Below are positions 14,142 to 62,501 of a DNA stretch of 64,000 bases, in pieces (position 1 is the stretch's first letter; each line of letters begins with the position of its first letter). The stretch lies in IMG/VR virus record IMGVR_UViG_3300032046_000005, positions 32,001-96,000 of that record, one strand, 5' to 3'. Position numbers and translations under genes: made by a program. The notes under the pieces were generated by a model, which worked only from the letters and a program-made list of their open reading frames with translations, had not been told where the DNA came from and ran no database searches. The stretch comes from a virus.

Positions 14142-14634
14142 TAAATCGCCTCGATATTATCTTATACAATCCAACCGTAAAAATGCTCATCATGACTATA
14201 AATAAGAAAATTATTATAGAATAAAACAATTGATAATTTGGATGTAAAAACGATAACATAAACTGTGTACCATCTCCTTTTTCGCTTCCAAACATTAAAT
14301 AGAATAAATTATAAATAATCGAAATAAAGGTTCCTATAAAAAAATCGTAGTTTTTTATAACATAAGAAAGTACCATCATGAATAATCCAATAAAACTAAC
14401 AAATAATACACCACTTATATCTATAAATCGCATATCGTTAGGTGAAATAGAACCAACTTTTTCCCAATAAGTATAAAATGCAGTTAGAGTAAATTCGAAA
14501 TGAAGAAATATATTTTTTGTCATAATAATTGCAATTATGTGTCCTATTTCGTGAATAAAACAATATACAAAAAATAATATAATACAAATAAAATTGATTC
14601 TTACTATTCTTAATATTTTCCTAATTTTGTTCAT
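14119..14634 (-). CDS. M50B-like membrane metallopeptidase
   Basis: TM helices with HEIGH and downstream GDG. Confidence 0.7.
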   Translation of the reverse strand: MNKIRKILRIVRINFICIILFFVYCFIHEIGHIIAIIMTKNIFLHFEFTLTAFYTYWEKVGSISPNDMRFIDISGVLFVSFIGLFMMVLSYVIKNYDFFIGTFISIIYNLFYLMFGSEKGDGTQFMLSFLHPNYQLFYSIIIFLFIVMMSIFTVGLYKIISRRFNDKLQVL

Positions 14635-14806
14635 TTTTTTCTTTTTCCTCCGCGCTTTTCAGTCCCAATTCCTGCTCTATTTCTGCTTTTATAGCGTTCC
14701 TTGCGATCTCGCTCAAGTTTACCTCTGGATTTAACCTTCTTAATACTTTTATGTCTTCGTAATCCAATGTCAACGCTATTTTTTTATAATTGCGACCACT
14801 TTTCAT
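14621..14806 (-). CDS. RHH/antitoxin-like small regulator
   Basis: KIALTLD...VNLSEIARNAI; own TATA at about 14828-14847. Confidence 0.6.
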   Translation of the reverse strand: MKSGRNYKKIALTLDYEDIKVLRRLNPEVNLSEIARNAIKAEIEQELGLKSAEEKEKNEQN

Positions 14807-14854
14807 TATACTATTAATATATTGGTAGGTATTTATGTTTATCGTTTTAAGAAG

Positions 14855-15289
14855 TCACCCGCATTGTTCTAATAGCACGCCATCAATTTTCCAATATTGC
14901 GTTTCTCCTTCTACTTTTCCTCCTCTTTTCAACCCATTCTTAGCGATTGCCATCGTGAGCGAACTTGCGTCTGCTCCAGCATTGTAAAAATGCACCACGT
15001 TAGTTCCTCCTGTATCTCGATATATCGAAACAGTAAAACCTCCTGCGTCGTGCCAATCGATTAAATAGTGTTGAAAGTCGTACCAATCTTGGTGCGATTC
15101 AAGAAATATGCCTTCTGCAAGCACGTTCCAAAACCGTTTTTCTAAATCATAGAACATGTGTCCTCCTCCCCCATAATGTTTAAACGTCGGATCTATGTTA
15201 AGCCAATAGTAGATGTCTTTTACTTTTATTTTCAAGTAATCAGTTCCATCGGTAATCCATAAATATCCTCCAGAAATGTAATCGGTCAT
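14855..15289 (-). CDS. distal tail (Dit)-like protein
   Basis: Immediately downstream of TMP; size and beta content fit. Confidence 0.5.
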   Translation of the reverse strand: MTDYISGGYLWITDGTDYLKIKVKDIYYWLNIDPTFKHYGGGGHMFYDLEKRFWNVLAEGIFLESHQDWYDFQHYLIDWHDAGGFTVSIYRDTGGTNVVHFYNAGADASSLTMAIAKNGLKRGGKVEGETQYWKIDGVLLEQCG

Positions 15290-20075: not shown

Positions 20076-20750
20076 CTATTTCATATAAAAAAGATTATGC
20101 GCTTCTGATTGAGTTCTTCTTGGAATATTGAAATATTCCATATTATTTCGAATAGTTGTTTCGTTTGTGTTTTTTAACTTAGCAATTTCAATAGCAGATT
20201 TTTGATTTTTTTCAAGTGTTCTTTCTTTCATATTTTTTTCTGTTAGCCAATATAATTCAATTAATTCTTTTTTTGTGAAATTTACACATTCATTTTGTTT
20301 CATATATTGTAATTTCTTTGATTCTCTTTGAGTTCTTTCTTTCATGTTAAAATTTTTCATATTTCTTAAAATTGTTTGTTTTGTACAATTTTTAATTTTT
20401 CCTATTTCATTGTTTGTTTTCTGATTAATATCTAAAATATTATGTTCCATATTATATTCAGAAATCCAATATAGTTTGATTAATTCTTCTCTTGAAAATA
20501 AAAAGATTTTTTTCTTTCTATCATTATGACATTTATCACATTTTTCTGTATAATCTTTTATATCTCTAGTATATGGATTAGGATGTTTGTTGAATGTCCA
20601 ACTTGTTCTGACTCTTCTTCCACAAATTTCGCATATTCCTTTTCTTGGATAATTTCTATTTAACCATATATGAATTGAATTATTACCTGCTTTATCTCCT
20701 TTCCAATTATGGTGGTTTTCTCTATATTTATATGACTTTTTCTTAATCAT
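20076..20750 (-). CDS. HNH-like homing endonuclease-related protein with two HTH modules
   Basis: NWKG...IHIWL..CEICG...CDKCH; two LIxLYW..E...EI.K...TI..N repeats; real ATG at 20750 (track extension is low-complexity). Confidence 0.6.
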   Translation of the reverse strand: MIKKKSYKYRENHHNWKGDKAGNNSIHIWLNRNYPRKGICEICGRRVRTSWTFNKHPNPYTRDIKDYTEKCDKCHNDRKKKIFLFSREELIKLYWISEYNMEHNILDINQKTNNEIGKIKNCTKQTILRNMKNFNMKERTQRESKKLQYMKQNECVNFTKKELIELYWLTEKNMKERTLEKNQKSAIEIAKLKNTNETTIRNNMEYFNIPRRTQSEAHNLFYMK

Positions 20751-20885
20751 ATATATAAAAACAACATCATCTAAGATTAATTTGATGATTATAAAATAAA
20801 AATATAAAAAAAAGAAAAAAAATAAAAAAATTAATTTGGTTCTTTCAAACCAATATTTCAATTAATAGTATTGTTAGAATGCTTC

Positions 20886-21857
20886 CTAAGTTAATGTCAA
20901 AGTGCCCGTCCGTTGTATGGCAGTGCTATATCGTTCAATCAAGCGTCCTGACCATATTAATAACCATTCGTAATATGCATTGTTGGTTCCACCACTATGT
21001 TCCATGTGAATCCTAAAAGGATATCCTTGAACTAATTCTAAGGTTGGTACAATTCCTCTAGATCCTCTAGCTTCTCGTTGTTTTGGAGCAATCATTGCCA
21101 TGCGGTATTTAACTCCTGAGTAATCAATGAAGTTAGGACTTGTTTCCCAATTTTGAATGTATTTCTTTTCGAGTATTCGTTGATGTTCAGTAATACCTAC
21201 TGTTGAAAAGAAATGGTTTTCTAATTCAGCGTATTTTTCTGTAGTTAAGTCTGAGAAAATTGGATATTTTGGCAAGTTATGTCCTGCAGTTAGCAAGGCA
21301 TTTTTCATTGTAACAATTGTTGCTAAATAGTCCCCAGCAGTTTGCATGTCATCGTCTCCATCAATTCCTCCAGCAATCGTTGTTCCTCCATTGAATATTC
21401 CAGTGAACTCTCCTTTACCTTTGAAAGGATCCATAGTTGATACTGGATTTTTCATTTCGTCTCCCCAAGCTAAAAATTGATCTACTTGGTTAACCATCAC
21501 GGGAATAGTTCTCTTGACTGTTTCTTTTATCAAATCTCCATTAATCAATTGATTGTTTTTAAATTTATCAACATCTTGTAAGGAAATCTGAACTTTACAA
21601 GCCAAGTAAAGTAATCCAATTGTGGTCTCGCCGAAACGAGGTACGATTATGTTAGCATCGTGTATTGAACTTGACATCTGTGCTCCATCTGGTTTCTTCC
21701 AATCAAAGTATGTGAGTTTATCTATACCTTCTCCTATGTTTCTTACTAATCCATTCGTATTAAAAAAGTTCCATAATGTCGGTTGTACAAGAACGAATTC
21801 CCATACATACTTTTCTATCGTTTTGGATAGTAATTCATTAAACATTTCGCCTACCAT
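20886..21857 (-). CDS. major capsid protein (HK97 fold, encapsulin/linocin-like)
   Basis: 323 aa, downstream of scaffold and decoration protein; QFLAWGD..TGIFNG spine-helix motif; C-terminal GRLIERYSTAI. Confidence 0.85.
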   Translation of the reverse strand: MVGEMFNELLSKTIEKYVWEFVLVQPTLWNFFNTNGLVRNIGEGIDKLTYFDWKKPDGAQMSSSIHDANIIVPRFGETTIGLLYLACKVQISLQDVDKFKNNQLINGDLIKETVKRTIPVMVNQVDQFLAWGDEMKNPVSTMDPFKGKGEFTGIFNGGTTIAGGIDGDDDMQTAGDYLATIVTMKNALLTAGHNLPKYPIFSDLTTEKYAELENHFFSTVGITEHQRILEKKYIQNWETSPNFIDYSGVKYRMAMIAPKQREARGSRGIVPTLELVQGYPFRIHMEHSGGTNNAYYEWLLIWSGRLIERYSTAIQRTGTLTLT

Positions 21858-21861
21858 GTGT

Positions 21862-22353
21862 TTAGTTCTTCACCCATCTGGCATAAAAGTATTTTCGAGT
21901 AGCGCTTGCACCTGTTACGGCTTCTAAAGCAATCATTTGAAAGTTATCGTTTGTATCTGCAACGGCAAACACTCCATCAACGCATTTGAGTTTATTCCCT
22001 TTCGCAATTGTAGTATTCGTTTCAGATAAAACAAGAATATCTATTCCTTGTTTTGGAACTCCTACACGAATCCACGAATTATCAGCAAAGGGATGATCAT
22101 AGTCTCTATAAAATATTCCAGTTGCATCAATTGTTTCTACTTGTGGCATATATTGTAATGCAAATCCAAAAATAGCTTCATTTTCTCCACATAAATCGAT
22201 ATCAGATTGTCCTGCTTCGCCATATTCTGTCACAGCCATACCAATTGCTATATCAGAACCAGTACATTGTCTATCAACCACTCTTTCCCATTGTCCCTTA
22301 TAAAGTAAAGTACTAATTGCTAAACCTATAAGAGTCGTTCCTAATGATACCAT
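21862..22353 (-). CDS. capsid decoration/cement protein
   Basis: IAIGMAV...FGFA...TIAKGNKL beta-tulip-like pattern, between scaffold and MCP. Confidence 0.7.
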   Translation of the reverse strand: MVSLGTTLIGLAISTLLYKGQWERVVDRQCTGSDIAIGMAVTEYGEAGQSDIDLCGENEAIFGFALQYMPQVETIDATGIFYRDYDHPFADNSWIRVGVPKQGIDILVLSETNTTIAKGNKLKCVDGVFAVADTNDNFQMIALEAVTGASATRKYFYARWVKN

Positions 22354-27360: not shown

Positions 27361-28939
27361 TATCTCGTAAATTTCCCACACGAATCATTTTCACTTTCTT
27401 GAAATCTTTCTTATTTTTTGGTTCGAGAATCGTTTGAACCTTGAACTTGCCGTTCACGCGACAACCAACTGCTTTTTTACCTTTTCCAATGTTGAATGTT
27501 CGATATGTACCTTCTTCACATTCAGAAGGATCAAACTGTTGTTTTCGTATGAAGTTTTCAGTTTCGTGAATTTTTATCGTGTCTTTTGCAAATTTATGTT
27601 TGGCTCTTTCCTTTTCTTCCTCATATTCCATTTTCTGATGCTGTTTATGAGTTTCTTTATCAAGTTTTTCAAATTTTTTAGTTAATTTTGGATTATGGAC
27701 AATTTCTTCTTTTGTTTCTCCTTTAATTCCTTGTAATTCGTTCATTTCTCTTTCCAATTTCTTGATTTCGTGAATCAATCGAACTCTTTTTTCTATTTTC
27801 AAGTTTTTAGCTTTTTTGATTCTTTCATAATATTTAGCAAATGGAACGAGTGTTTTTTTCTTATGCGCTATGATATCCATCAAGATCATTATCAGTTCTT
27901 TAAGAACACTCTTAATGTTTGGATCGTTATCAGATAAGTGTCGTAATGTATCAACGCGTTTGTTAACTGCCTCTTGTTTTCTTTTCACGCGATAATTTTT
28001 CCATTCTTGATCTTTTTCTTTCTTTATTGATTCTTTTTTTGGATGTTCTTTATTGTGTTCTGATTCTGCTCGTTCTCGTTCGTATCCGGTTTGTTCGATC
28101 AACTTTTGAACTCCTTTTTCGCGTTCAGAAAGTTCTTTTTCTTTCTTGGTTGGTTTTTTAGGTTGTTTTGGTTCACTTGGTTCTTTCTTAATTACTTTCT
28201 TTTTCTTTACTTTTTCTTCTTTCAAGCCTTCGTAAAACTTTTTCTTGCTTTCTTCTTTTTCTCGTGGCGTTCTTTCCTTTTCCTTGTTTGCTATAAAGTT
28301 CTTAATTGCCTGTGCTTGAGTCTCTCCTTCGTTCATGCACACGTGTGTTCCTCTTATGGTTATCCAGTTGCATTTCGATGCGTCAAAATCTGTTTTTGAT
28401 TCAAAAACATTATTGATTTGCCATAAATTATTTTTTGGTAATTTGATTTTTGAAAATGCTTTAAATATGACTGCATATCTTATACTATCTTTATCTTCAT
28501 CTACTTTTTGAAATTCAATGTTCTTAATATCTTGTTTTGCAAGTTCATGTTCAAATTCTTCTTCATGACCTTTATCAATCCACACATCAATTTCTGTTTC
28601 TTTAAGTTCTTTTTTTTGTTTAACCAACTGTCTTTTTTCTCGTTGTTTTTCGAGTATTTCTCCTGTTTTTTCCCAAGACTGTTTCCATTCTGGTTGATTG
28701 TATTGTTCAAGTGATTTTTGACTCTTGTTCAAATGTTCTCTTCCTTTTTCAGAATCATAAAAATGATTGCTTTTACATATGTTGCAATAATAAGTATTTT
28801 TATTATCTTCCACAAAATCCTCGTCAAGATCCTTGAACACTTCCTCAAGCAAATCGCGCTCGTCAAAATCTGGATGTATTTTCTTTAATTCGTTGTATTT
28901 CCGAATTATCGTTTCGTGTTTGAAATCTGTTTCTAACAT
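27347..28939 (-). CDS. multimodular head-associated protein (Zn finger, WITIRGTHV module, RKQQFDP module)
   Basis: YYCNICKSNH..GREHL; WITIRGTHV resembles the WITxNGxH motif of phage head proteins; Lys/Glu-rich. Confidence 0.6.
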   Translation of the reverse strand: MLETDFKHETIIRKYNELKKIHPDFDERDLLEEVFKDLDEDFVEDNKNTYYCNICKSNHFYDSEKGREHLNKSQKSLEQYNQPEWKQSWEKTGEILEKQREKRQLVKQKKELKETEIDVWIDKGHEEEFEHELAKQDIKNIEFQKVDEDKDSIRYAVIFKAFSKIKLPKNNLWQINNVFESKTDFDASKCNWITIRGTHVCMNEGETQAQAIKNFIANKEKERTPREKEESKKKFYEGLKEEKVKKKKVIKKEPSEPKQPKKPTKKEKELSEREKGVQKLIEQTGYERERAESEHNKEHPKKESIKKEKDQEWKNYRVKRKQEAVNKRVDTLRHLSDNDPNIKSVLKELIMILMDIIAHKKKTLVPFAKYYERIKKAKNLKIEKRVRLIHEIKKLEREMNELQGIKGETKEEIVHNPKLTKKFEKLDKETHKQHQKMEYEEEKERAKHKFAKDTIKIHETENFIRKQQFDPSECEEGTYRTFNIGKGKKAVGCRVNGKFKVQTILEPKNKKDFKKVKMIRVGNLRDNESL

Positions 28940-29013
28940 TATAAGTGTAAAATTTTAACAATAAAATATTTTAATGATAATAAGTAAGAATATTGAAACT
29001 AATATTTTTATCA

Positions 29014-37604: not shown

Positions 37605-38177
37605 TTAGTCAAAATTCCTAATTTTTTCTCTCATTCCTATTTTTTTGCAAGGAGAACCGACGTAAATCGTCCAAGGTTCTAAGTCTTTTAACGCCAATGA
37701 ATTAGAACCGAGTATTGCTCCATCTCCAACCGTGATACAAGGATGAACGATTGAATTAGTTCCTATGACTACATCTTTACCAATATACATTCTTCCTCTT
37801 TTTATATTTTGTTGATTATTTGGAACAGATGCAGTCATGTGAAAGCCTCCTTGATGCAAGTTTGAACCTGTAACCAAACGAGAACCAGCGGCTAATGCGC
37901 TATAATCTCCCATTTCTAATTCCCCTCCTCCTACTATGCTTACAAACGATGCAATATGAACATATTTTCCAATCTTGATTCCCATTCCTCCGTAAAGAAA
38001 TGTAAAATCGTCAATCATGGAATAATCTCCGATTTCTATGACTTCTGGATTTACAAACTTAGCCTGTGGAAAAATTTTTACATTCTTTCCAAAACTTTTG
38101 AAATCATTTGACATTAATTTACGATATCCGTTTTCTAATTTTATTTTTGTTAGGCAATCGATTATTTCATTTGGCAT
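37605..38177 (-). CDS. hexapeptide-repeat (LbH) sugar acyltransferase
   Basis: IEIGDYSMI, IKIGKYVHI, IGKDVVIG, VGDGAILG, GSPCK. Confidence 0.9.
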   Translation of the reverse strand: MPNEIIDCLTKIKLENGYRKLMSNDFKSFGKNVKIFPQAKFVNPEVIEIGDYSMIDDFTFLYGGMGIKIGKYVHIASFVSIVGGGELEMGDYSALAAGSRLVTGSNLHQGGFHMTASVPNNQQNIKRGRMYIGKDVVIGTNSIVHPCITVGDGAILGSNSLALKDLEPWTIYVGSPCKKIGMREKIRNFD

Positions 38178-39004
38178 TTTTTCTCTCCTTTCATATCTCT
38201 TAATATTTTACTTTCTGATTTAGTTCTTATTGTTATATCATATTTTATGAGATTTTGTCTAATAGTTCCATAATTACAATTGTTTTCTTTAGCTATTTCT
38301 AATATACCTTTTTGTAATTTATTTAATTGCTTATTTTTCATACATTTTTCTGAAGTCCAATATTCTATAATTAAATATATTCTACTAAAAAAACATCTAA
38401 TTCTATGATTTGTTATTTCTTTAGAAATTTTTTTTCCTTTTTCCCATTGATGATAACATTTTAATGAACAAAAATGATGACAACTATTTTTATTATATTT
38501 ACAACCTTTTTTTATTACTTCTTTTCCACAATGATCACAATTATATTTATGTTCAATTCCTCCATCTTTCCAATTTGGATTATCTTTACCATTATATTTT
38601 CCTTTTCTCATTTCACTTATTTTTTTCTTTGTTTCAAATGTATGTTTTCCATTATTTCCTCCACATTTAAGATTATAACCATAAGAATGATCTAATGTAT
38701 TATATTTTTGAATGTAAAAATCTTCTTTTCTATTTAATTCATTTTGGCTAATTGCAGAATCAATAATTTTAAATTCAAAATTATTAATTTCATATTTTTT
38801 TAAACTATTACATAAATATGAATTAAAATTATAATTGCGTAATAATTCATTTAATTTACAAGAACGACTTCTAAAACCTCGTTTATTTACTGTTTGACCA
38901 ATATATCTTTTATTATTTATTTTGTTTCTAATTTGATAAATATATCCATAAGGATTTAAAAAATCTTCTAATGTTATCATTCGGCTTTCATTTTTAATTT
39001 CCAA
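38162..39004 (-). CDS. GIY-YIG homing endonuclease (NUMOD3, Zn finger, HTH)
   Basis: GYIY..N..NNKRYIGQT, E..YI..GYNL..GG, HTFETKKKISE..KG..NPNWK. Confidence 0.85.
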   Translation of the reverse strand: MEIKNESRMITLEDFLNPYGYIYQIRNKINNKRYIGQTVNKRGFRSRSCKLNELLRNYNFNSYLCNSLKKYEINNFEFKIIDSAISQNELNRKEDFYIQKYNTLDHSYGYNLKCGGNNGKHTFETKKKISEMRKGKYNGKDNPNWKDGGIEHKYNCDHCGKEVIKKGCKYNKNSCHHFCSLKCYHQWEKGKKISKEITNHRIRCFFSRIYLIIEYWTSEKCMKNKQLNKLQKGILEIAKENNCNYGTIRQNLIKYDITIRTKSESKILRDMKGEKKCQMK

Positions 39005-40011
39005 TATCCATCACCATTCTTTTCTAATATTTTACGATTTGCAAATTTATCTATTGTTTTTAGAAACAATTCTTTTGAAATATTCAAACCACTACAAAAA
39101 TCTTCTTCCATCACTAGATCTTTCTGCCAGTCATATTTATTAACTCTTTTGACGGCTTCTTTTCTACTCATTTCACCGTGTCTTACCATATTACTACAAT
39201 GTTCTGTTGTGGCTCCAAATCCAAATTTGATGAATTTGCAAAATTCATTAATAAGATATCCGACAGTATCCACTTGGCAATATTCAAATCCTTGATATCC
39301 TTCACGATCCCATTCGTTTGTATCGTTTAATCCTTTGAAACCGTATTGTTTTGCAAATTCATATCTCTTTATTAGACTCTTCCAAGGAACATAATAACTT
39401 GTAAATATTACATCAAGATCTTTAAATTCATTAGAATCTTTAAGTAATATTTTAGCATTTGGAGTTTCTTTTTCATTCTTATTTCCAATAGTTATATTTG
39501 TGTTTTCTCCCCAAATAACTAATTTAATACCCATTTTCTGTGCTATTTCTAATGGTTTTTTATAAAGAATTTCATCCCAATATTTTTCTGGATGTAAATA
39601 ATTTAAAAAATCTTCTCTTGTTCTTTTTATAATTTCTTTTCTATTTGGAGTAAAAGTAATGATATCAATTCCAAAACGTTCGCTTAAATTATCAAAATTT
39701 TTTCTTCCAGTATTGGTCCAACTAAAATTATCAATCATTATTCCTAATGGATTCATTAAAAGTTTTTCTTTAAATAAATAAACCAAATAATGAGAATCTT
39801 TTCCTGAACTAATACAAATAATGCAATCATAATTTCCATCATTTCGTTTATATTTTTTACATAATTCTTCAAGTTCTTTCCATCTTTCATTCCAATCTAT
39901 TTTTTTACTTTCTTCAAATTGAACACACGAATTACATATTCCTTCTTTTGTAAACGAAAGATTCAATCTTTGATTAGTCATCACACATCTTTTACAACGC
40001 AAAAATTTCAT
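38977..40011 (-). CDS. N-acetyl sugar amidotransferase (WbpG/PseA-like)
   Basis: CKRC..GICNSC, YDCII.ISSGKDS PP-loop, KFIKFGFG, RHG.MSR.EA. Confidence 0.85.
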   Translation of the reverse strand: MKFLRCKRCVMTNQRLNLSFTKEGICNSCVQFEESKKIDWNERWKELEELCKKYKRNDGNYDCIICISSGKDSHYLVYLFKEKLLMNPLGIMIDNFSWTNTGRKNFDNLSERFGIDIITFTPNRKEIIKRTREDFLNYLHPEKYWDEILYKKPLEIAQKMGIKLVIWGENTNITIGNKNEKETPNAKILLKDSNEFKDLDVIFTSYYVPWKSLIKRYEFAKQYGFKGLNDTNEWDREGYQGFEYCQVDTVGYLINEFCKFIKFGFGATTEHCSNMVRHGEMSRKEAVKRVNKYDWQKDLVMEEDFCSGLNISKELFLKTIDKFANRKILEKNGDGYWKLKMKAE

Positions 40012-40491
40012 TTAAATCAACTTCTTTATAGTATATTGATTGTTGCATATTCCTAAATCCCAATCTTTTTTTGTGTGACAAGAATGACATAACCATTCAT
40101 AATCTTCAATATTTCGTGTATAATTTCCTTTTGAATGATCAAAACTTAATTCTATTTTTCTTTCTTTTCTACATTTCATGCAATATATTGGTTTGGAATA
40201 ATTGGTATTTAACCATATATGAATTGCTTTTTGTCCAGCATTATTTCCTTTCCATAAATAATGTTTTTCTCTTCCTAAAAACCCTTTTAATCCTTTATTC
40301 CAAGGTATTTTTCCTTTTAAATATTTTATTTTTTGAGATTCAGAAAGATTTCTTATTTTTATGTTAAAGCGTACTAACCAATTAAAAACAGTTGTAGGAC
40401 TATTTACATTACATAAATGTGCTATTTCTACAGTTGAATTTTTTTTAATTATATACTGATCATATAACCAATTTTTATCTTTATAACTCAA
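40012..40491 (-). CDS. HTH plus NUMOD plus HNH-like homing endonuclease-related protein
   Basis: YKDKNWLYDQY..EIA; PWNKG; WKG..IHIWL..CMKC..WLCHSCH. Confidence 0.65.
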   Translation of the reverse strand: MSYKDKNWLYDQYIIKKNSTVEIAHLCNVNSPTTVFNWLVRFNIKIRNLSESQKIKYLKGKIPWNKGLKGFLGREKHYLWKGNNAGQKAIHIWLNTNYSKPIYCMKCRKERKIELSFDHSKGNYTRNIEDYEWLCHSCHTKKDWDLGICNNQYTIKKLI

Positions 40492-41354
40492 TCTATTTCA
40501 CTCCACTTTTCATATTCATTAGGAATTATCCAATATTTAGGATTCACATCATTAGAAATCAAGATTTCATAATCAGAAATAAGTTTTTCGTGTAATTTTT
40601 CTCCTAATCGATTACCAATTATTTCGATAGGATAATCTTTTCCCACTATTTCTTGAATAACATCTATTAGTTTTTGTTCTCTAAGTTTCGGAACCCATAT
40701 TTCTCCATTTTTACCTTCTATAAATGCTTTCGTGATGAAATCAATCATTTCTTTAGGATACATGAAAAACCGTTCCATATCTATATTTGTAAGTAATATG
40801 GGTTCTTTTTTTTCTTTTTTTTCTTTAGCAATTTGAACTATTGAACCTCTAGAACCATATATATTTCCTAGTCTCACACAAACCATTTGAATCAGAGGAT
40901 CTTGACTCCATCTTACCTGTAGCAATCTTTCACTTATTTTTTTTGAACATCCCATTAAGGATGAAGGTTCAATTGCCTTATCTGTACTAATATGTAATAA
41001 TTTCTTGATTTTATGTTCAATAGAAGCAGTAATAATGTTATCAAGTCCCATAATATTTACAGAAACTGCTTCCATAGGATTATATTCACAAAAGGGAACA
41101 TGTTTGATTGCGGCACAATTTATTGCATAATTTACTCCTTTCAATGCTCTACGAACTCTTTCTAAGTTTCTTACATCACCCAACAAACACCGAATTCTGT
41201 TATTATTCCATTTTTGTTGACATTCCCATAAAGAATTTTCATCATTACTGAATACTCGTATTGAATATGGTTTTTGTTTTAATAGATATTCAACAATGAG
41301 AGAACCAATAGATCCTGTTCCTCCAAATACACATGTTGTCTTATCTTTAAACAT
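40488..41354 (-). CDS. UDP-GlcNAc 4,6-dehydratase (PseB/CapD/PglF family)
   Basis: GGTGSIG, AAIKHVP, STDKA, MGCSK, RLGNIYGSRGS, GEKLHE. Confidence 0.9.
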   Translation of the reverse strand: MFKDKTTCVFGGTGSIGSLIVEYLLKQKPYSIRVFSNDENSLWECQQKWNNNRIRCLLGDVRNLERVRRALKGVNYAINCAAIKHVPFCEYNPMEAVSVNIMGLDNIITASIEHKIKKLLHISTDKAIEPSSLMGCSKKISERLLQVRWSQDPLIQMVCVRLGNIYGSRGSIVQIAKEKKEKKEPILLTNIDMERFFMYPKEMIDFITKAFIEGKNGEIWVPKLREQKLIDVIQEIVGKDYPIEIIGNRLGEKLHEKLISDYEILISNDVNPKYWIIPNEYEKWSEID

Positions 41355-43139: not shown

Positions 43140-45077
43140 TTATTTTTTGACTTTTTTATCAAAATCTTTTCGTTGATACATATAACTTGGACTATTTTCT
43201 ATTTGTTTTTGTAATCGTTCGCTTCGTTCTCGTAATCTATCCATCGTTTCGTTCCATTCGTCCATTCTTTCTTTAAAAAAGTTTTTGTTATGCATCATGA
43301 TTTCCATAAATCGTTGATTTTCTAACGATTCTTGTATCCAATCAATGTTATCAAAATCTTGTATTCCTTTCACTGGTTTATTTCTAACAGCTTTTTCTGG
43401 TTTGCCCGTTCTCACGGTTTTTGTTCGTTCAGGAGTGATTTTTTGATCTTCATTTACTTTTTTTTCTACTTTTTCTCCTTTTCCTTGTCCTTGTTCATTA
43501 CCTTGTCCTTGTGGTGGCAATAACAACTGTGGATTTTTCTTGAATTGTTCGAATTGCATCATAGCTTGCTCGTATTGCATGCCCATTAATTTCTTTTGAA
43601 TTTTGACCATTTTTGTTTGAACTTTTGCTTGTTCTAGTTGTTCTCGCATTAATTGTTCAGTTAATCGTTGCTGTTCGGTTTTATGCAAGTCCAAGTTCCA
43701 ACGCAATGTCACATTACCTAAGTCTGGAAAATGACACATGTTCTGCAAAATATCCATTATGTCATCCGTTATGTCCATTTGTAATGTAGACAGGTTTGAA
43801 GCCAAGTAATCTTCTTTTGAAACTAACGCACCTGCGCCTTCAAGACCCCCACCTTCCGCTCTTCCAAATAATTGGTTCTTAGGTATGATCCAAGCACTCG
43901 AAATGTCTTCTCTCAAGAATTCGAGATATGAATCAATACCTTCTCCAATCTTGCCTGCCGCATTCATGAGTTTAAAATCCATGTTCTTTCCAAATATATA
44001 GAACTTGTTTGCTCTCATTTTAGCAAATAAATCGAGATATTTCTGAGTCAATTCAGCAGAAGGATATTCTTGAGCTACAGTTGCTCCCACTAATACTGTT
44101 CCAAGTTGAGATAATGATCGTAATATGTAATAACAAGTATTTAGATAACAGATTAACGGAATCCAACACAATTCCGGTATTGCAATACCTCTCAAACCTC
44201 CTTCTACTTTTCTTGTTTCTAAAACATGAACTCTTGAATGATGTATGGTCGTTTGAGTAGGCACTCCACCAATATAATCCCATTTCGATTTGTCATAATC
44301 TAATCTTGCGTTATCAAAAATGTTCATTGGAGTCATATAATAACAACTAAACGCATCAAAATCAATTGGTCTGGTTCTAGGAGCAGATTTATCCATTCTC
44401 TCTACTCCTTTTTCTCCTCTATAATATCCAATCAAATGTCCTAATCCGGTCATTCGTTCGAAATAAACCGTATCAGTTATGTGATCCCATAAATGTGTCT
44501 GATTCATCCATTTCAAAATAGTCATTATTTCAGGAGTTTTGATTTCTTTATCAGGATCATCATAATTCACGAAAGAAAAACGATTTCTAAACGCATCCTT
44601 CGCTACTGAATAACAACCTCTATGTGCAACTCCCAATCGTTGAGTACACATTACCACGAGATGAGAAACGGGAATTCTTCCATAGTCGTAAACATAATCT
44701 CCTCCTCCTGGAGTTCCGTAAAAATCGTCAAGAGGAGTATAATAAGATTGAAAGTCTGATGTAATGCTTTCAAATTTTTCTTTAATTCCATCTCCTAACG
44801 GAATCCGGTAATCTTTTCCATAACCTTGAGGAATTCCTAAAAACTTGTAAAAATCTTTAGTTAATCCCCATTCGTCCGTTTTTTCGTTTTCTTGTTTAAG
44901 TTTGCTTTTAATAAGTGCTTCGTCTAAAACTTCAATGTAGTCTCGTGGTTTCTTGATTTCATCTGAAAAACCGTATTCTTTCGCAACTTTATCGTGTCGC
45001 TTTTTTACATCAGAAGAAGTGAATCCGCCTAGTTTAGATTGAAATCCTTTCGAACCTTTTTTACTTATACCTGTCAT
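43140..45077 (-). CDS. portal protein (DUF1073-like) with long N- and C-terminal extensions
   Basis: IHHSRV, G.AI, ISSAWIIPKNQLFG..GGL, EDY, LRWN motifs typical of DUF1073 portals. Confidence 0.85.
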   Translation of the reverse strand: MTGISKKGSKGFQSKLGGFTSSDVKKRHDKVAKEYGFSDEIKKPRDYIEVLDEALIKSKLKQENEKTDEWGLTKDFYKFLGIPQGYGKDYRIPLGDGIKEKFESITSDFQSYYTPLDDFYGTPGGGDYVYDYGRIPVSHLVVMCTQRLGVAHRGCYSVAKDAFRNRFSFVNYDDPDKEIKTPEIMTILKWMNQTHLWDHITDTVYFERMTGLGHLIGYYRGEKGVERMDKSAPRTRPIDFDAFSCYYMTPMNIFDNARLDYDKSKWDYIGGVPTQTTIHHSRVHVLETRKVEGGLRGIAIPELCWIPLICYLNTCYYILRSLSQLGTVLVGATVAQEYPSAELTQKYLDLFAKMRANKFYIFGKNMDFKLMNAAGKIGEGIDSYLEFLREDISSAWIIPKNQLFGRAEGGGLEGAGALVSKEDYLASNLSTLQMDITDDIMDILQNMCHFPDLGNVTLRWNLDLHKTEQQRLTEQLMREQLEQAKVQTKMVKIQKKLMGMQYEQAMMQFEQFKKNPQLLLPPQGQGNEQGQGKGEKVEKKVNEDQKITPERTKTVRTGKPEKAVRNKPVKGIQDFDNIDWIQESLENQRFMEIMMHNKNFFKERMDEWNETMDRLRERSERLQKQIENSPSYMYQRKDFDKKVKK

Positions 45078-45380
45078 TTATGATACTTTTAATTGATAAT
45101 TATTAAACAGATTATCCCACGATTTGGTGTCTTTAAAATTTGCTACTATTTTAGCACATAAATGAAATGGTTTTATCACTTCAGTTGAAAACGTATCATT
45201 AAATTCATAATCTAATATGACTCCATATTCATCTTTGTTCAAATTTCTTTCTTCAATAGGTATGATTGATATTTTAAACGAATCTAAAATCTGTTTTTCT
45301 ATTATCTTTTTCATGTGTTCTATAATAGCTTTAAAACTTGGACTTTCTTTTTCTAGTAATTTTTCATTTGCATTATTCAT
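45078..45380 (-). CDS. hypothetical protein, paralogue of 59044..59364
   Basis: NE.LL..PS.KAII...IE..ILDSF.(I/V)SI.P...DY.FN...PFH.C.KI..N.KD...WD.LF shared with 59044..59364. Confidence 0.7.
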   Translation of the reverse strand: MNNANEKLLEKESPSFKAIIEHMKKIIEKQILDSFKISIIPIEERNLNKDEYGVILDYEFNDTFSTEVIKPFHLCAKIVANFKDTKSWDNLFNNYQLKVS

Positions 45381-49274: not shown

Positions 49275-50042
49275 GTGATACAAACAAACAAAATATACAA
49301 CATTGATTGTCAAGAAGGATTCAAACAATTGAACGATAATTCGATACATTTGATTGTTACATCTCCTCCTTACAATGTCAACAAAGAATACGAAGAAAAC
49401 CAAACATTTGATGATTGGTATGAACTAATGAAAGAAGTAATAAAAGAATCAAAACGAGTTCTCGTTTCTGGAGGAAGACTATGCATTAATGTAGCTAATA
49501 TTGCTCGAAAACCTTATATTCCTTTAAATTATTACATAATAGATATTTTACTTCAGATAAAATTTTTACTTAGAGGTATTATAATATGGGAAAAAGGAAT
49601 ATCTGGAGGAAAAAGTACAACTTGGGGATCTTGGAGATCTGCTTCTAATCCAGTTATTAGAGATGATTATGAATTTATTATTGTTTCTTGTAAAGATAAA
49701 TACAAACTTGAACCAAAAGGTATTAATTCAATTTCTTCAAAAGATTTTCTTTTTTGTTATAATGCAGTATGGCATATGAATGCAGAATCAAATCCTAATA
49801 TAAATCATCCTACTCCTTTTCCAATTAATTTACCAAAGCAATTAATAGAATTTTATACTTTTGAAAACAACATTATATTAGATCCTTTCATTGGATCAGG
49901 AACAACAGCAATTGCTGCCTTATTAACAAGAAGAAAGTTCATAGGATTCGAAAAAGAAAAAAAGTATGTTGACTTGGCAAATAAACGCATTTATCCATAC
50001 TTAGGACAACAAAAAATAACAGACTTTACCAGTCATCAATAA
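49275..50042 (+). CDS. beta-class N4-cytosine/N6-adenine DNA methyltransferase
   Basis: LIVTSPPY motif IV, HPTPFP, LDPFIGSGTT motif I. Confidence 0.92.
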   Translation: MIQTNKIYNIDCQEGFKQLNDNSIHLIVTSPPYNVNKEYEENQTFDDWYELMKEVIKESKRVLVSGGRLCINVANIARKPYIPLNYYIIDILLQIKFLLRGIIIWEKGISGGKSTTWGSWRSASNPVIRDDYEFIIVSCKDKYKLEPKGINSISSKDFLFCYNAVWHMNAESNPNINHPTPFPINLPKQLIEFYTFENNIILDPFIGSGTTAIAALLTRRKFIGFEKEKKYVDLANKRIYPYLGQQKITDFTSHQ

Positions 50043-51828
50043 CAACTCTGCTTTTACCTCTCCTTAATTGTCTCCTAATTTCTTCTTCTTTATCTTCGGG
50101 AGTTTTGATGTTTCTATGAGTTAGATTATCTTCAAAATCAGCATACACGCTCATAATTTCTACAAATGGATCTTCACTAAGAGCAACTGGTATTTTCTGA
50201 AGTTCGTATTCTGCATTTGCCAACGCATCAATGGCATCAAGTTTAGGATAATACGGAAACTTTAATATCTCGTTTGCAAGTTCAGAACGTTCTAATGTTG
50301 ACATCATGCTTATTAATTCGTTTTTAATGGGTAATAAAAGGCGATCTTTTATTCGTTGAATTTTCTCTCCAGTATTATGCAAGTCCATGATTTCAGCATA
50401 AATAGCAATCTTGTTTGTTATTTGTTTACCATCATGTATAAAATACACTCTAGAACGACACATTTCAATGAAATCATCTCCTCCTCCTTGTTTTTCAATT
50501 ATGATTATGATTCGTATGCTTTCGTATTTTTTCTTGAATTCAATCACAAAATCGTTAATCTTTATGAGCAACTCTTCAAGCGTGGTATGTTCTGTCCAAT
50601 CGTGTAATATGACTTTATGACCAGTGTTCATGTTTCTCAAACCAATCACACATCCGGTATAACTTGAAGATTGTTTCGTGGTTGTAGCTCGATCAATCGT
50701 TATGAAACAAATGTCATATTTCCGGTTAACTGGATCTTCAAGCAAGTTTATTGTCTTGATATGATCCCAAATTTCTCCTGTTATTGGGTGCGGATCTTGC
50801 TCATATTCAGAAAACCAAGCGTATTCTCCCACGTGTTTTCTAGTTGCTTCTAAATTTATCTTTTTCTTTTTAAGATCTTTTTCAAATGAAGGTAAACTTG
50901 GATGAGTGAATAGTTCAGGACATAATAACGATCCGTCTTCATTTCTTGTTTTTCTCTTATAAACAACTAAATCTTTACCAAATTTTTCTCCAATAAAATC
51001 AAAAAAGTCTCCTTCAAATTTATGAGTTCCCGTAAAACTCCACTTATCTGGATGAATTGGATAAAGCGAACTATTAAAATGAAGTTCAAGCGTTTCTTCT
51101 AAATGTCGTTCTTTCATGAATTTAGAATCAATAGGATCATCAACCGAAATCCATAATTTTCGTTCTATTTTTCGTTGTTCTTCAACATATCTCTTGATTT
51201 CTTTAGGATCAAAAGCTCCATCTTCGTTATCTTCAAACATCTTTACAAAATCGTCCCAATCTTCATTAGACATGTTTTCAAAACGGTCTTGTCGACCTAA
51301 TGAATGCATTCCTAGAGTATCTTTTGAAGTTATCAAATAACAATCAAACTTGCCTCCATTTACTAACCTAAAATGAAATGGAGATGTCCTTTTATCTTTC
51401 TCAACCAATCTTTGTCGTTCAAAAAAAACATAAACTGTATATGCAATTTCTTTTCTTCGATCAGTCCATCCTAACAAAAGAACATCGTAGTTTTGGTACC
51501 ACATTGCCCATTCGTATTTCCACGCGTATTCAATTGATTTCCCATGATTACGAGGAACAAGCGTTTCTTCAAATGTAGATTCCCAAGTTAAATCGTGATG
51601 TTCTTTTTGCCATTTGAACAAACCTCTGAATTTAGGATATGTAATATATCTACAAAACTTTTCAAATCCAGGATCTTTTGTTGGAAGTGGAATTAGTTCT
51701 TCGTCTAATTCTGATTCTTCTCCATCTTTCTTTTTCTTTTTCTTTTTAGGATCGTCTTTCTTGATTATGTTTCCATTTAAATCCCATAAACCAAGCACGG
51801 TTTGTGGAGCATATTCTTCTTTAGACAA
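50026..51828 (-). CDS. terL: terminase large subunit
   Basis: LFKWQ, Walker A VPRNHGKS, Walker B ISVDDPID, GT coupling motif, EYEQDP, nuclease ITIDRA, IEKQGGG, LDAIDALA. Confidence 0.88.
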   Translation of the reverse strand: MSKEEYAPQTVLGLWDLNGNIIKKDDPKKKKKKKDGEESELDEELIPLPTKDPGFEKFCRYITYPKFRGLFKWQKEHHDLTWESTFEETLVPRNHGKSIEYAWKYEWAMWYQNYDVLLLGWTDRRKEIAYTVYVFFERQRLVEKDKRTSPFHFRLVNGGKFDCYLITSKDTLGMHSLGRQDRFENMSNEDWDDFVKMFEDNEDGAFDPKEIKRYVEEQRKIERKLWISVDDPIDSKFMKERHLEETLELHFNSSLYPIHPDKWSFTGTHKFEGDFFDFIGEKFGKDLVVYKRKTRNEDGSLLCPELFTHPSLPSFEKDLKKKKINLEATRKHVGEYAWFSEYEQDPHPITGEIWDHIKTINLLEDPVNRKYDICFITIDRATTTKQSSSYTGCVIGLRNMNTGHKVILHDWTEHTTLEELLIKINDFVIEFKKKYESIRIIIIIEKQGGGDDFIEMCRSRVYFIHDGKQITNKIAIYAEIMDLHNTGEKIQRIKDRLLLPIKNELISMMSTLERSELANEILKFPYYPKLDAIDALANAEYELQKIPVALSEDPFVEIMSVYADFEDNLTHRNIKTPEDKEEEIRRQLRRGKSRVVIDDW

Positions 51829-57990: not shown

Positions 57991-58255
57991 TTTCTCATAT
58001 TATTAAGTTTTGATATGTTAAAAGTAAAACAAACATATAAAGTTTATTGATATACAAACATTTAAATATGAATAATTATATATACTAATTAGTGAAAAAT
58101 ATGATAAATGAAATCATAATTGATTTAAAAGCGTTAAAAATCTCACTTGAACGCGTTCCTAAAAATGTTGCTCCAAGTGAAGATAAAGAACTATATTTAG
58201 GAAAAGCACTTGAAGATTTGAAAGTGCTGATTCTTAAATATATGAAATTAAAGGA

Positions 58256-59041
58256 TTAATTTTTAACAAACAAAATCGCATTGGGATAATGAATCATCAA
58301 TCTTCCAGACCACACGAAAAGAAAATCAACCGTTTTTTGAAGGTTATGCGTGATTGGTTCAAATACAAACGAATAACCTTCATACAATTCAAATGTTTTG
58401 AATTTATGTTCATCCTTACCAATTGAAGTTGAAATCAAACAATATCCTTTTTCATGTTTATAATTTTCGAAATTAGGACTTGTAAAAACTGTTTTTATGT
58501 CTTCTGAAAGTTGTGGTATAAGAATATCAGGACTTACAAGCAAAACAAAAGGTAAATCATATCCATCGCCTTTCATTGTTTCTATTGATTCATTCAAATC
58601 AATTCTATAAAATCCGCCGTTAAATAAGCCATAGAATTCTCTACATTTCCATTCTCTCATTTTTTCAATCGTTTCTACTGGATCTAACATATCATCTCCC
58701 CAAGCAATGAATTGTTCGATTTGATCTTGCATTACCTTAACTACTTTCTTAAATTGTTCTTCATACAATTTATTATAATTATCCTTATATTCGTCAATCT
58801 TTTCAAATGAAATTTCAACTTTAGTAGCAAGATATAACATTGGAACAGTTGATTCACATCCAACATCTATCAATCCAGAATCTTTTTTCCAATCAAAATA
58901 TGTTAACTTATCAATTCCTTCTCCAAGTTGTTTAATCAATCCATTCTTTCTCAAGAAGCTGTAAAGATTGTCTTGATTTTCTATTTGTTCTTTCGTTCTT
59001 TCTTGTATTTTTTTTGATATTTCTTGTATTTTTTCTTCCGT
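58256..59041 (-). CDS. second, internally deleted major capsid protein paralogue; probable start ACG at 59041 (track start TTG 58954)
   Basis: GEGIDKLTYFDWKK identical to MCP; LYLA.KV.IS, QF.AWGD.M..PV, FNGG, TSPNF, EL..GY.F, WSGRL shared. Confidence 0.85.
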   Translation of the reverse strand, partial: TEEKIQEISKKIQERTKEQIENQDNLYSFLRKNGLIKQLGEGIDKLTYFDWKKDSGLIDVGCESTVPMLYLATKVEISFEKIDEYKDNYNKLYEEQFKKVVKVMQDQIEQFIAWGDDMLDPVETIEKMREWKCREFYGLFNGGFYRIDLNESIETMKGDGYDLPFVLLVSPDILIPQLSEDIKTVFTSPNFENYKHEKGYCLISTSIGKDEHKFKTFELYEGYSFVFEPITHNLQKTVDFLFVWSGRLMIHYPNAILFVKN

Positions 59042-59043
59042 TT

Positions 59044-59364
59044 TTAATCATCTTCTAAAGTATATTTTTCAAACAATTCGTCCCATTTATCTACATCTTT
59101 CGCATTAACTTGTATTTTGCTACAAACATGAAATGGTAATGGTAATGTTTCTGGATATTTTTCTCTAATTTCTAGATCAAATATTTTATTGTTAAAATAA
59201 TAATCAATAAGATATTCACGCGTGTCTTCTTTTTCTTGTTCTTCGTTTCTCATTGGTTCAATAGATACATCAAAAGAATCTAAAATTCTATGTTCAATGT
59301 TTCTTTTCACATCTTTAATGATTGCTTTCATGCTTGGTCTATTTAACAAATTTTCATTTGTCAT
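59044..59364 (-). CDS. paralogue of the gene upstream of the portal (45078..45380)
   Basis: End-to-end similarity by eye. Confidence 0.7.
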   Translation of the reverse strand: MTNENLLNRPSMKAIIKDVKRNIEHRILDSFDVSIEPMRNEEQEKEDTREYLIDYYFNNKIFDLEIREKYPETLPLPFHVCSKIQVNAKDVDKWDELFEKYTLEDD

Positions 59365-59440
59365 GATATATAGATTTTATGCTATATTTATATACTTCAT
59401 TATCAAAACGTTTAAATTATAACAAGTATAATTATATCAT

Positions 59441-59734
59441 ATGAACATAAATCTTAATTCAACAGAAAGAATAAGTATTGAAAAACCAGATCTAAAAGGT
59501 TGGTCTCATTGTTCTTGTAACGATCCAACCTGCAATCGAATGTTCTTTCAAAAATCTACATTACTTCATGTTTTGAAACCATATTTAGAAAAATGGAAGG
59601 ATTTGCCTTTAGATTTGGATCTTATGTCTTTTCATAATATTAATACTGGATTCATGACACTTGTTTTAACAATTTCTCAAACAGGAGATATTCAAGAAAG
59701 TGAATTGAAAAAAGCAATTGAAACCAAACGATGA
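59441..59734 (+). CDS. hypothetical protein
   Basis: Leaderless start after TATA at about 59410; HCSC..C. Confidence 0.5.
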   Translation: MNINLNSTERISIEKPDLKGWSHCSCNDPTCNRMFFQKSTLLHVLKPYLEKWKDLPLDLDLMSFHNINTGFMTLVLTISQTGDIQESELKKAIETKR

Positions 59735-60465
59735 TTGATCAACTTTATACCGAACAAGAAATCAAGAAATACGAGAAGTATTGTTTCAAATGTAAAAAGA
59801 CTTTGTATTATCATGAAGCTTTTGTTGAATTCATTAATAAAAAAATGAAAGAAGATGGATTTCGAGATAAAATGCCTTCTGAACTCAAACTACTTTTCAG
59901 AGATCAATTTAATGTTTGGTGGTTAAGCGATAAAATACAATTTTATTGTTGCAATTGTTATAATCAAGACAATAATCCTGCTCATTTACCATATTTCTTT
60001 AATCCTGATACGCGTGAATTTAATGCCGGAAGGAATGAATATAATAATGTTTCAATGACAGGAGATCTTTTAGCAACAGTCTTTTCTGCCATGCATATAT
60101 TTGAAGAATATTATTATCTTGATTTACATCATCGTTGTCGTCTTGATATTGAAATGAATTCTTATACATTGATACAATTTCAAATAGAAAATCATTATGA
60201 TACAATACTTGGATTGACAGAATTAGAACGAGTATCTGAAATGCCTTTTATCAGAAAAATAAACACAAACAACGATTTGCGAGAAAACAGAATTATATTC
60301 AAAACTAGCAATCTTCCAACTCCTCTTGTAATTAATGATTATAATCAATGGATAGAATATGATTTATATCATAACAATCCTATTGGACATCATGATGATT
60401 ATTATAGATATAGAGATCTTACAAAAAGAGAAATAGAAATTCACACGGGAATTTTGACTTTTTAA
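59731..60465 (+). CDS. Zn-finger domain fused to MCP-derived (A-domain-like) segment
   Basis: CFKC..FYCCNCY N-terminus; FNAG..GDLLATV..ENHYDTILGLTELERVSE vs MCP FNGG..GDYLATI..ENHFFSTVGITEHQRILE. Confidence 0.65.
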   Translation: MIDQLYTEQEIKKYEKYCFKCKKTLYYHEAFVEFINKKMKEDGFRDKMPSELKLLFRDQFNVWWLSDKIQFYCCNCYNQDNNPAHLPYFFNPDTREFNAGRNEYNNVSMTGDLLATVFSAMHIFEEYYYLDLHHRCRLDIEMNSYTLIQFQIENHYDTILGLTELERVSEMPFIRKINTNNDLRENRIIFKTSNLPTPLVINDYNQWIEYDLYHNNPIGHHDDYYRYRDLTKREIEIHTGILTF

Positions 60466-61892: not shown

Positions 61893-62501
61893 TCACCAAT
61901 ATGCAAACTCATTCTTATAGTTTGGAAAGTTCTTTTTCATGTATTCTTTACATGATTCTCGCTCTTTATCGTCAAAACAACCTTTTTCAACTATTTCAGT
62001 TTTGAATAATATGTTATCATTAACAGTATCAACACAAATCACATATTTTTGCAAGTTGTGAAAATTATTAGGTTCTACAAACTTATCTTGTATTGCATAT
62101 CTGCATAAAAAACAAATAAACGCATTACAATCATAAAACGCACCTTTATAAAAAAAATTAGCCCGTTTTCTGTTTTTATCGTCAATCAAATTGTTCCACA
62201 TCGAATGTTCTGTATTTTCAATTCTCCAACCTTCAGGCAATTTCACTTCAAAAAACAAATCATCATATTCCTTGATTATCTCAATGTCTAATTTTTCATA
62301 TGCTTTTTTGATATCAGTATAACCCAAGTGCTTTCTTTCGTAAGGGTTATATTTCTTAGGCAATAATTGAAATTCCTTCACTTTCTTTTGTTCTCGTTTC
62401 TCTTGGTTCTCAATCGTTTGAGGAATGTTTTTTGTTGTCATTCCTTCAGTAAATACTTCTAAAAAACCTTCTTCTTTTTTATCATTTTTCATGTCTTTCA
62501 T
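61893..62501 (-). CDS. conserved hypothetical viral protein
   Basis: DDLF..V.LPEGW...TEHSMW..L.D..NR.RA.FFYK.AFYD motif. Confidence 0.65.
   Translation of the reverse strand: MKDMKNDKKEEGFLEVFTEGMTTKNIPQTIENQEKREQKKVKEFQLLPKKYNPYERKHLGYTDIKKAYEKLDIEIIKEYDDLFFEVKLPEGWRIENTEHSMWNNLIDDKNRKRANFFYKGAFYDCNAFICFLCRYAIQDKFVEPNNFHNLQKYVICVDTVNDNILFKTEIVEKGCFDDKERESCKEYMKKNFPNYKNEFAYW

Follow-up and report, generated by a model that had tools for sequence, protein, structure and literature searches.

A trimmed capsid-protein paralog and zinc-finger fusions to copied head-protein parts in a large uncultured virus

We analysed a window of 64,000 nucleotides (bases 32001-96000) from the 115,632-bp virus record IMGVR_UViG_3300032046_000005 of IMG/VR, the completeness of which is estimated at 71%, and identified in it a locus with two derivatives of the virus's own HK97-fold major capsid protein (MCP) gene. 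One of these, MCP2, is a trimmed paralog of MCP1, the major capsid protein of the virus; the other, ZnFA, joins a zinc-finger module to a diverged 3' half of the MCP gene (Table 1). Sequence comparison establishes both as selected, lineage-specific derivatives: they descend from head genes, a sister strain retains both in intact and conserved form, and the fusion of zinc fingers to head-protein parts recurs. As to their role, we infer, with a probability of about 0.35, that they are capsid-associated accessory proteins and that MCP2 is a minor, penton-like subunit. The viral identity of the record is evident from its portal, terminase and tail genes. The source is a large uncultured virus with a putative AT-rich archaeal host. 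The G+C content of the window is ~28%. Within a genome collection, the nearest relative of MCP1 was located on a contig from a metagenome-assembled genome labelled 'uncultured archaeon'.

MCP2 is 32% identical to MCP1 over 310 alignment columns (BLASTP E value 4e-38). A HMMER scan of 1.84 billion representatives yielded an MCP family of 27 members or clusters, and a family profile of 26 members, built without MCP2, matches it with an E value of 2.5e-34 across positions 9-158 and 231-313, skipping positions 159-230. Relative to MCP1, MCP2 has lost 12 residues of the E-loop, the GGIDGDDDMQTAG loop and the ENHFF...QRI block, in agreement with an earlier, sequence-only reading of the window that had described a second MCP with an E-loop about 12 residues shorter and two segments missing. 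In the family alignment, MCP2 alone is without the E-loop tip, the glycine-rich acidic loop and the block between the A-domain strands, and it also lacks the conserved C-terminal tail. Nearly all of the 27 family members are 320-330 residues long, and the short type represented by MCP2 forms a single cluster, P0002, from a near-identical strain. The N-terminal half of MCP2, comprising the N-arm, E-loop base, P strand, spine helix and linker, is 36-52% identical to MCP1. Identity falls to 16-33% across the C-terminal part, the P hairpin and the periphery of the A-domain, and it is in this periphery that the large deletions are located.

At the base of the E-loop, a stretch of 14 residues, GEGIDKLTYFDWKK, is identical in the two proteins, as previously noted. 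The corresponding DNA differs at 7 of 42 nucleotides, with seven synonymous and no non-synonymous changes, indicating that the motif has been kept by selection in both copies and does not reflect a recent copy. In a maximum-likelihood tree, MCP2 is placed within the subclade of MCP1 itself (support 99/97), and its branch has a length of 1.62 changes per site, compared with 0.13 for MCP1. Given this position and the long branch, MCP2 is a home-grown, fast-changing duplicate, a pattern that would be as expected for a duplicate whose role has changed. Recent copying and gene conversion are ruled out as origins of MCP2 by the synonymous differences together with the long branch.

AlphaFold predicts a complete HK97 fold for MCP2 with all elements in order (predicted local distance difference test, pLDDT, 86), and likewise an HK97 fold for MCP1 (pLDDT 85), so that both the paralogy and the confident fold bear out MCP2 as a genuine capsid-fold protein. 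In Foldseek comparisons the two proteins match encapsulin shells and phage capsid proteins with E values of 1e-10 to 1e-14; for MCP2 the range is 1e-10 to 1e-12 at a probability of 1.00, against encapsulins and phage MCPs. The best structural matches of MCP2 are shells of Family 1 encapsulins (for example PDB 8v4n, 9fy6 and 3dkt). Because MCP1 matches the same encapsulins equally well or better, this likeness is a property of the family, and a special link between MCP2 and encapsulins is ruled out.

To locate the retained elements, secondary-structure strings were matched to the MCP1/MCP2 sequence alignment. Both N-arm helices, the P-domain strand, the long spine helix and the A-domain sheet are kept in MCP2, as are both strands of the E-loop, the hairpin of which spans 23 residues versus 35 in MCP1. 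The parts that are gone (MCP1 numbering) are the loop at 162-175, about one third of the helix at 176-190 and the helix-hairpin-helix at 204-229. In HK97-fold proteins, two A-domain helices provide the main contacts among the subunits of one facet (PMC8346489). By analogy, the A-domain helices that are mostly gone from MCP2 would be those for contacts inside the capsomer.

ZnFA carries five cysteines (residues 18, 21, 73, 74 and 76) in its N-terminal module, and its C-terminal part is similar to residues 103-240 of MCP1 (BLASTP E value 2e-4). Genome-wide comparisons were made across 671 stop-to-stop open reading frames (ORFs) with a total of 70,818 residues; within this set, phmmer connects ZnFA and MCP1 with E values of 2e-4 and 2e-3 in the two directions. 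The MCP family profile matches ZnFA at positions 156-240 (E value 9e-4), and hhalign returns an E value of 4.7e-5 at a probability of 68%. The ungapped match of 9 in 22 residues to MCP1 described earlier is correct, and the matched profile positions correspond to the region skipped by MCP2 (159-230), as had been proposed. Taken by themselves, these matches (E values of about 1e-3 to 5e-5) make a modest case for ZnFA as an MCP derivative. ZnFA does not contain a complete HK97 fold, as it covers only profile positions 156-240 and the C-terminal tail, the N-terminal 85 residues being the zinc finger. The ESM Atlas model of ZnFA is unreliable (pLDDT 0.39), and a search of the ESM Atlas yielded no usable relative of the protein.

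The finger module has two paralogs in the genome, ZnFB and ZnFC, both encoded outside the window. ZnFA matches ZnFB with a BLASTP E value of 1e-10, the match to ZnFC has an E value of 5e-8, and the cysteines are invariant across the module. ZnFB, located ~65 kb from the MCP2-ZnFA locus, matches the MCP family profile at positions 161-224 with an E value of 2e-12 and keeps the glycine-loop motif of the family. Furthermore, members of the MCP family end in a TGxLT tail, and only 3 of the 671 ORFs, namely MCP1, ZnFA and ZnFB, have this motif among their ten C-terminal residues, out of four occurrences of TGxLT overall. The match to ZnFB and the shared tail make the derivation of ZnFA from the MCP solid. 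Both proteins are thus zinc fingers joined to the MCP 3' half. This half ends at the natural stop of the gene and lacks most of the P hairpin.

ZnFA and ZnFB carry the part, including the tail, that is gone from MCP2. The complementarity claimed by the sequence-only reading holds at the sequence level, where it extends to the C-terminal tail, and it is only partial, because ZnFA also has one helix and one strand of which shortened versions remain in MCP2.

In a sister strain, MCP2 (P0002) and ZnFA (P0035) are encoded on one 3,717-bp contig and both are intact, so that no disruption of MCP2 is seen there. P0002 differs from MCP2 at 4 of 261 residues. In ZnFA, 27 of the 85 residues of the finger domain differ between the strains, against 3 among the 159 residues of the MCP-like domain (Fisher p 3e-11), and all five cysteines are kept. 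P0030, the ortholog of ZnFB, carries 13 changes, all of which lie outside the finger core. The strains further differ in the sequence immediately ahead of MCP2, and the variable stretch, from the start of MCP2 through the promoter region to residue 85 of ZnFA, may represent one recombination tract. Diversifying selection acting on the finger is the alternative explanation.

In this lineage, zinc fingers are repeatedly found fused to parts copied from head proteins, with different parts used each time. A 491-residue protein encoded elsewhere in the genome combines a zinc ribbon, the motif YYTPVDDFY, a copy of the whole decoration-like head protein (50% identity, E value 2e-55) and a cysteine-rich C-terminus. 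Its YYTPVDDFY corresponds to YYTPLDDFY (residue 112) in the N-terminal portion of the portal (BLASTP E value 0.001), and a YYTPxDDFY regular expression finds only the portal and this chimera among the 671 ORFs. A distant relative, IMGVR_UViG_3300005253_000064, is a complete genome of 46.4 kb with terminal repeats, the MCP of which is 37% identical, and it encodes a 477-residue chimera. The N-terminus of this protein matches the P strand, spine helix and next motif of the MCP family (E value 2.3e-7 genome-wide, 2.8e-9 as a single comparison), its middle contains two colinear parts of the virus's own portal, including the same kind of motif (E value 3e-4), and its C-terminal end matches the finger profile (E value 9.4e-4). 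The copied parts are therefore the MCP half in two proteins, the decoration protein with the portal motif in one, and the MCP spine helix with portal pieces in the distant relative. We conclude that the description of the pair as exapted capsid pieces is sound, as the HK97 capsid gene of the virus itself gave rise to both, the sister strain has them intact and conserved, and they belong to a wider set of head-protein derivatives.

A conserved aromatic-Pro-acidic motif is present ahead of the portal fold in the portals of both viruses, as YYTPLDDFY (residues 112-121) in the virus studied here and as PYYKPSDDIY (residues 80-90) in the portal of the relative (L005:923-2542, plus strand). This motif, a piece of the portal that was copied into the chimeras, may be a short docking motif.

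The proteins of the locus otherwise have few detectable relatives. Searches of Pfam and PHROGs gave no family for MCP1, MCP2, ZnFA, ZnFB, ZnFC, ORF97, ORF100 or ORF106, and sequence searches of the PDB gave no matches. Word-based homolog searches with MCP2, ZnFA and the zinc-finger alignment recovered only the window's own or near-identical proteins, and scans of viral contigs with single proteins found no matches. A profile scan recovered one relative, the 46-kb genome described above, and scans of metagenomes and genomes recovered 25 loci with relatives of MCP1, the flanks of which contain no further MCP2, zinc-finger or MCP-fragment genes. Closer relatives are represented only by short contigs, and MCP2 is seen only in near-identical strains.

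Table 1. Features of the MCP2-ZnFA locus, the head and packaging genes and the zinc-finger chimeras. Positions are those of the window unless stated otherwise.
Feature	Position	Strand	Description and basis
MCP1	20886..21857	-	323-residue major capsid protein, parent of the derivatives; HK97 fold (pLDDT 85); decoration-like and scaffold-like genes upstream
Decoration-like head protein	21862..22353	-	163 residues; weak PHROG head-decoration match
Portal	43140-45077	-	Pfam and PHROG portal matches
ORF100	45078..45380	-	Small gene abutting the portal start; paralog of ORF106
Large terminase	50026-51828		
MCP2	58256..59041	-	261-residue trimmed HK97-fold MCP paralog; BLASTP, AlphaFold, Foldseek
ORF106	59044..59364	-	Small protein, stop 2 bases upstream of ACG 59041; paralog of ORF100
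Divergent intergenic region	59365..59440	.	76 bp, A/T-rich; sequence reading
ORF97	59441..59734	+	97 residues, first gene of rightward pair; 4-nucleotide overlap with ZnFA start
ZnFA residues 1-85	59731..59985	+	Cys5 zinc-finger module (CxxC ... W W ... CCxC), common to ZnFB and ZnFC
ZnFA residues 86-244	59986..60465	+	Diverged MCP 3' half, glycine loop and A-domain helices to TGxLT tail
ZnFB	L003:1036-1905 (outside window)	+	289 residues; finger and best-preserved MCP 3' half
ZnFC	L004:1105-2127 (outside window)	+	340 residues; finger flanked by ~115 and ~145 residues without detectable relative
491-residue chimera	L034:1039-2514 = genome 22538-24013 (outside window)	+	Zinc ribbon with head-protein parts
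477-residue chimera of the 46.4-kb relative	L007:265-1698	-	Divergent from terminase gene

The reading frame of MCP2 contains no ATG start. It is open from 59047, no ATG, GTG or TTG is encountered before a TTG at 58954, and homology to MCP1 extends upstream of this TTG. At 59041 the frame has ACG, which follows GATGA and an A-rich spacer; in the sister strain this codon is ATG. Further ACG-headed open frames are found at 14141 of the window (minus strand) and at 6999 and 7996 of the genome (plus strand). Ahead of these ACG codons and that at 59041 there are GGTGA, GATGA or GAGG elements followed by an A/T-rich spacer, and the frames may be translated by near-cognate initiation. Use of ACG as a start would bear on the amount of MCP2 made by the present strain.

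The small gene preceding MCP2, ORF106, is 42% identical to ORF100, which precedes the portal (BLASTP E value 9e-22, phmmer E value 8e-18), and the gene pairs ORF100-portal and ORF106-MCP2 are parallel. No homolog of ORF100 or ORF106 was found ahead of the portal of the 46-kb relative. A frameshift fusion of ORF106 with MCP2 was ruled out, as there is no slippery site ahead of the stop, and the idea that ORF106 is a further MCP piece was dropped (E value 0.008 over 29 residues, not significant). ORF97 was likewise rejected as an MCP piece (E value 0.21 against MCP1) and has no significant similarity to any other ORF among the 671. A 55-residue ORF on the plus strand (58092-58259) is convergent with MCP2 and overlaps its stop by 4 nucleotides; no relatives of it were found.

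The intergenic region at 59365-59440 separates two divergent gene pairs and contains one TATA-like element ~30 nucleotides ahead of each ATG, confirming the earlier observation of such elements, and it is a putative divergent promoter. A similar GTTTAAAT element is located at about -30 of the gene at 61893-62501. A scan of the control region for bacterial-type promoters was uninformative.

Many internal paralogs are present in the genome. Paralog pairs involve genes at 38165-39010, 20079-20861 and 40015-40497 of the window (all on the minus strand) and at 13589-14884 of the genome (plus strand). In the head module, the order of genes is scaffold-like gene, decoration-like gene and MCP1, and the 261-residue gene directly after MCP1 has segments in common with genes of a glycan cluster. 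Two large proteins encoded between the portal and head genes, at 24961-27384 and 27350-28954 (both minus strand), have a common N-terminal stretch of 26 residues (77% identity, E value 4e-10) and little similarity in the remainder; the stretch could be a targeting or processing signal.

Given these analyses, we favor the interpretation that the products of the locus associate with the capsid. MCP2 would assemble together with MCP1 and form a minor type of capsomer. The most plausible site for it would be the fivefold vertices, as for T4 gp24 and the Ccm protein of SaPIbov5. The better-conserved N-terminal half of MCP2 would meet the neighboring MCP1 hexamers and its center would be remodelled. 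ORF106 would serve the MCP2 vertex as its paralog ORF100 would serve the portal vertex. The head-protein parts copied into the zinc-finger chimeras would be handles for docking on head proteins, and docking would bring the zinc finger to the shell or to free subunits.

Several observations weigh against this interpretation. MCP2 is encoded 37 kb from the scaffold, decoration and MCP1 genes, among small genes without a family, and the place of an MCP in the head module is held by MCP1. No MCP2-type protein was found beyond near-identical strains among the 1.84 billion representatives, and the complete 46-kb relative has no MCP2. Two near-invariant family motifs, G164 in the glycine loop and L320 in the C-terminal tail, are gone from MCP2. 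For an essential vertex protein, the replacement of ATG by ACG in the present strain would be a hazard unless translation can begin at ACG. Finally, the decoration copy of the 491-residue chimera would sit outside the shell and the MCP half of ZnFA and ZnFB inside the lattice, so that it is not evident how one principle of docking would apply to both.

MCP and portal are classes of proteins that are sensed by bacterial defense systems such as CapRel and Avs. The copied parts in the chimeras come from the MCP, the portal and the decoration protein, and the chimeras, perhaps together with MCP2, could instead be cytoplasmic imitations of unassembled head subunits that occupy or mislead host sensors of capsid or portal proteins, or regulators that read the pool of free head proteins. 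We consider this unlikely, though it accommodates several features of the locus: two of the copied proteins belong to the sensed classes, the genes have their own divergent TATA-like region among small accessory genes, and the many changes in the ZnFA finger, with its cysteines kept and the MCP-like part nearly unchanged, would fit an arms race. However, the variable stretch adjoins the differing region upstream of MCP2 and may be a recombination tract, and ZnFB shows the opposite pattern, with an unchanged finger core. In addition, a full-fold MCP2 would be as likely to trigger a capsid sensor as to block it. The decoy or interference function headlined by the sequence-only reading found no direct support, as no defense-related or anti-defense family was matched in Pfam and PHROGs (PADLOC was not searched) and no published precedent was found in the literature. 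The sequence-only reading had also named a vertex variant and an encapsulin-like compartment as options. A vertex or minor-capsomer role would fit the pattern of conservation at least as well as a decoy role. More broadly, it is conceivable, but doubtful, that the chimeras are a class of viral self-mimics with the trimmed MCP2 as a partner, acting on free head subunits or host sensors, conserved across distant archaeal tailed viruses and arrived at convergently in large phages and giant viruses.

The abundance of internal paralogs, the lack of an ATG for MCP2 in the present strain and the confinement of the family to a narrow lineage would also be consistent with leftover duplicates and recombination products that drift without function. 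This is improbable, however, given that all frames are intact in two strains, the GEGIDKLTYFDWKK differences are exclusively synonymous and the fold of MCP2 is predicted with confidence. None of the zinc ligands has changed, conservation reaches 98% in the MCP-like part of ZnFA, ZnFB keeps the glycine-loop motif, and a similar design is found in a virus with an MCP only 37% identical.

Another reading takes MCP2 and ZnFA as the two chains of one capsid subunit, in which ZnFA would supply the A-domain helices, glycine loop and C-terminal tail missing from MCP2 and thereby place zinc fingers at the center of the capsomer. It is suggested by the skipped profile positions (159-230), which fall within the region matched by ZnFA and ZnFB (156-240), by the TGxLT tail that is gone from MCP2 and kept in both fusions, and by the common 76-bp control region and the MCP2-ZnFA linkage kept in the sister strain. 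We regard it as quite improbable: the MCP2 model is compact and confident without a partner (pLDDT 80-93 at residues 140-190), ZnFA also has elements still present in MCP2, and ZnFB, the better-preserved copy, is encoded far from MCP2. A complex prediction for MCP2 with residues 85-244 of ZnFA scored 0.00 with an uncertain fold of the partner, which speaks neither for nor against binding.

If MCP2 or the chimeras interfered with assembly, they would poison head formation or change head size in related viruses infecting the same cell. Such interference has a model in the satellite protein Ccm, a diverged MCP homolog that takes the pentamers of its helper phage and alters the capsid shape (PMC8569155), and the better-conserved N-terminal half retained by MCP2 would be compatible with it. 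It is nevertheless very unlikely, as the genes belong to the virus's own genome and not to a satellite, the nearest target would be the virus's own MCP1, and no flanking integrase or satellite-type genes were seen near the locus. Least credible of all is a separate encapsulin-like compartment formed by MCP2 in the infected cell. The top structural matches of MCP2 are indeed encapsulin shells, but MCP1 matches these as well or better, and Pfam and PHROG scans identified no cargo-type gene or known enzyme family nearby.

The recurrence of zinc fingers with head-protein parts points to a working principle, of address labels or mimics, and not to an accident. If the products of the locus are in the virion, they would be a new kind of minor capsid component of archaeal viruses. 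If they are cytoplasmic, they would constitute the first example of self-mimicry of virion proteins and would offer a way into the study of archaeal capsid sensing. The locus is a small, directly testable set of genes under either role.

Second copies of capsid proteins are rare in tailed viruses, and those that have been studied, gp24 and Ccm, decide vertex structure or capsid size. The gp24 vertex protein of T4 is reportedly a paralog of the major capsid protein gp23; gene 24 adjoins gene 23 in the late head cluster and is common to T4-like phages. MCP2 resembles gp24 in that it, too, is an additional, diverged paralog with the HK97 fold that exists beside the MCP of the same large tailed virus, and this is the basis for interpreting it as a minor capsomer. 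Unlike gp24, MCP2 is encoded far from the MCP gene, lacks the conserved tail and part of the A-domain, and is known from one lineage only; a vertex site is only proposed for it. In SaPIbov5, Ccm is an MCP homolog with 24% identity that fills the pentamers, the hexamers being made of the phage capsid protein (PMC8569155). MCP2 is likewise a weakly similar MCP homolog encoded outside the head module and coexisting with the MCP, with co-assembly seen for Ccm only. Whereas Ccm is borne by a satellite and directed against a helper phage, MCP2 is found in the virus's own genome and inside the subclade of its own MCP.

Compared with Family 1 encapsulins, MCP2 has a similar size, a compact HK97 fold and N-terminal helices, but its setting is viral and no cargo gene is adjacent. 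In Family 4 'A-domain' encapsulins (DUF1884, PF08967), the HK97 A-domain occurs as a separate small protein (PMC8346489). The C-terminal parts of ZnFA and ZnFB are similarly MCP parts without N-arm, E-loop and most of the P-domain; they have no match to PF08967 and none to any Pfam family at E values of 0.05-0.1. In contrast to the stand-alone Family 4 proteins, which have ~100 residues and are encoded in enzyme operons, these parts are fused to a finger and encoded among small viral genes, and they are of recent viral origin, with motifs of the virus's own MCP kept. Second MCP paralogs (gp24 and Ccm) and stand-alone A-domains (Family 4 encapsulins) are thus already known kinds. Literature searches found no description of such fusions of fingers to head proteins, and both the trimmed MCP beside a fusion of a zinc finger to an MCP half and the lineage-wide family of zinc-finger proteins that carry head-protein parts appear to be undescribed.

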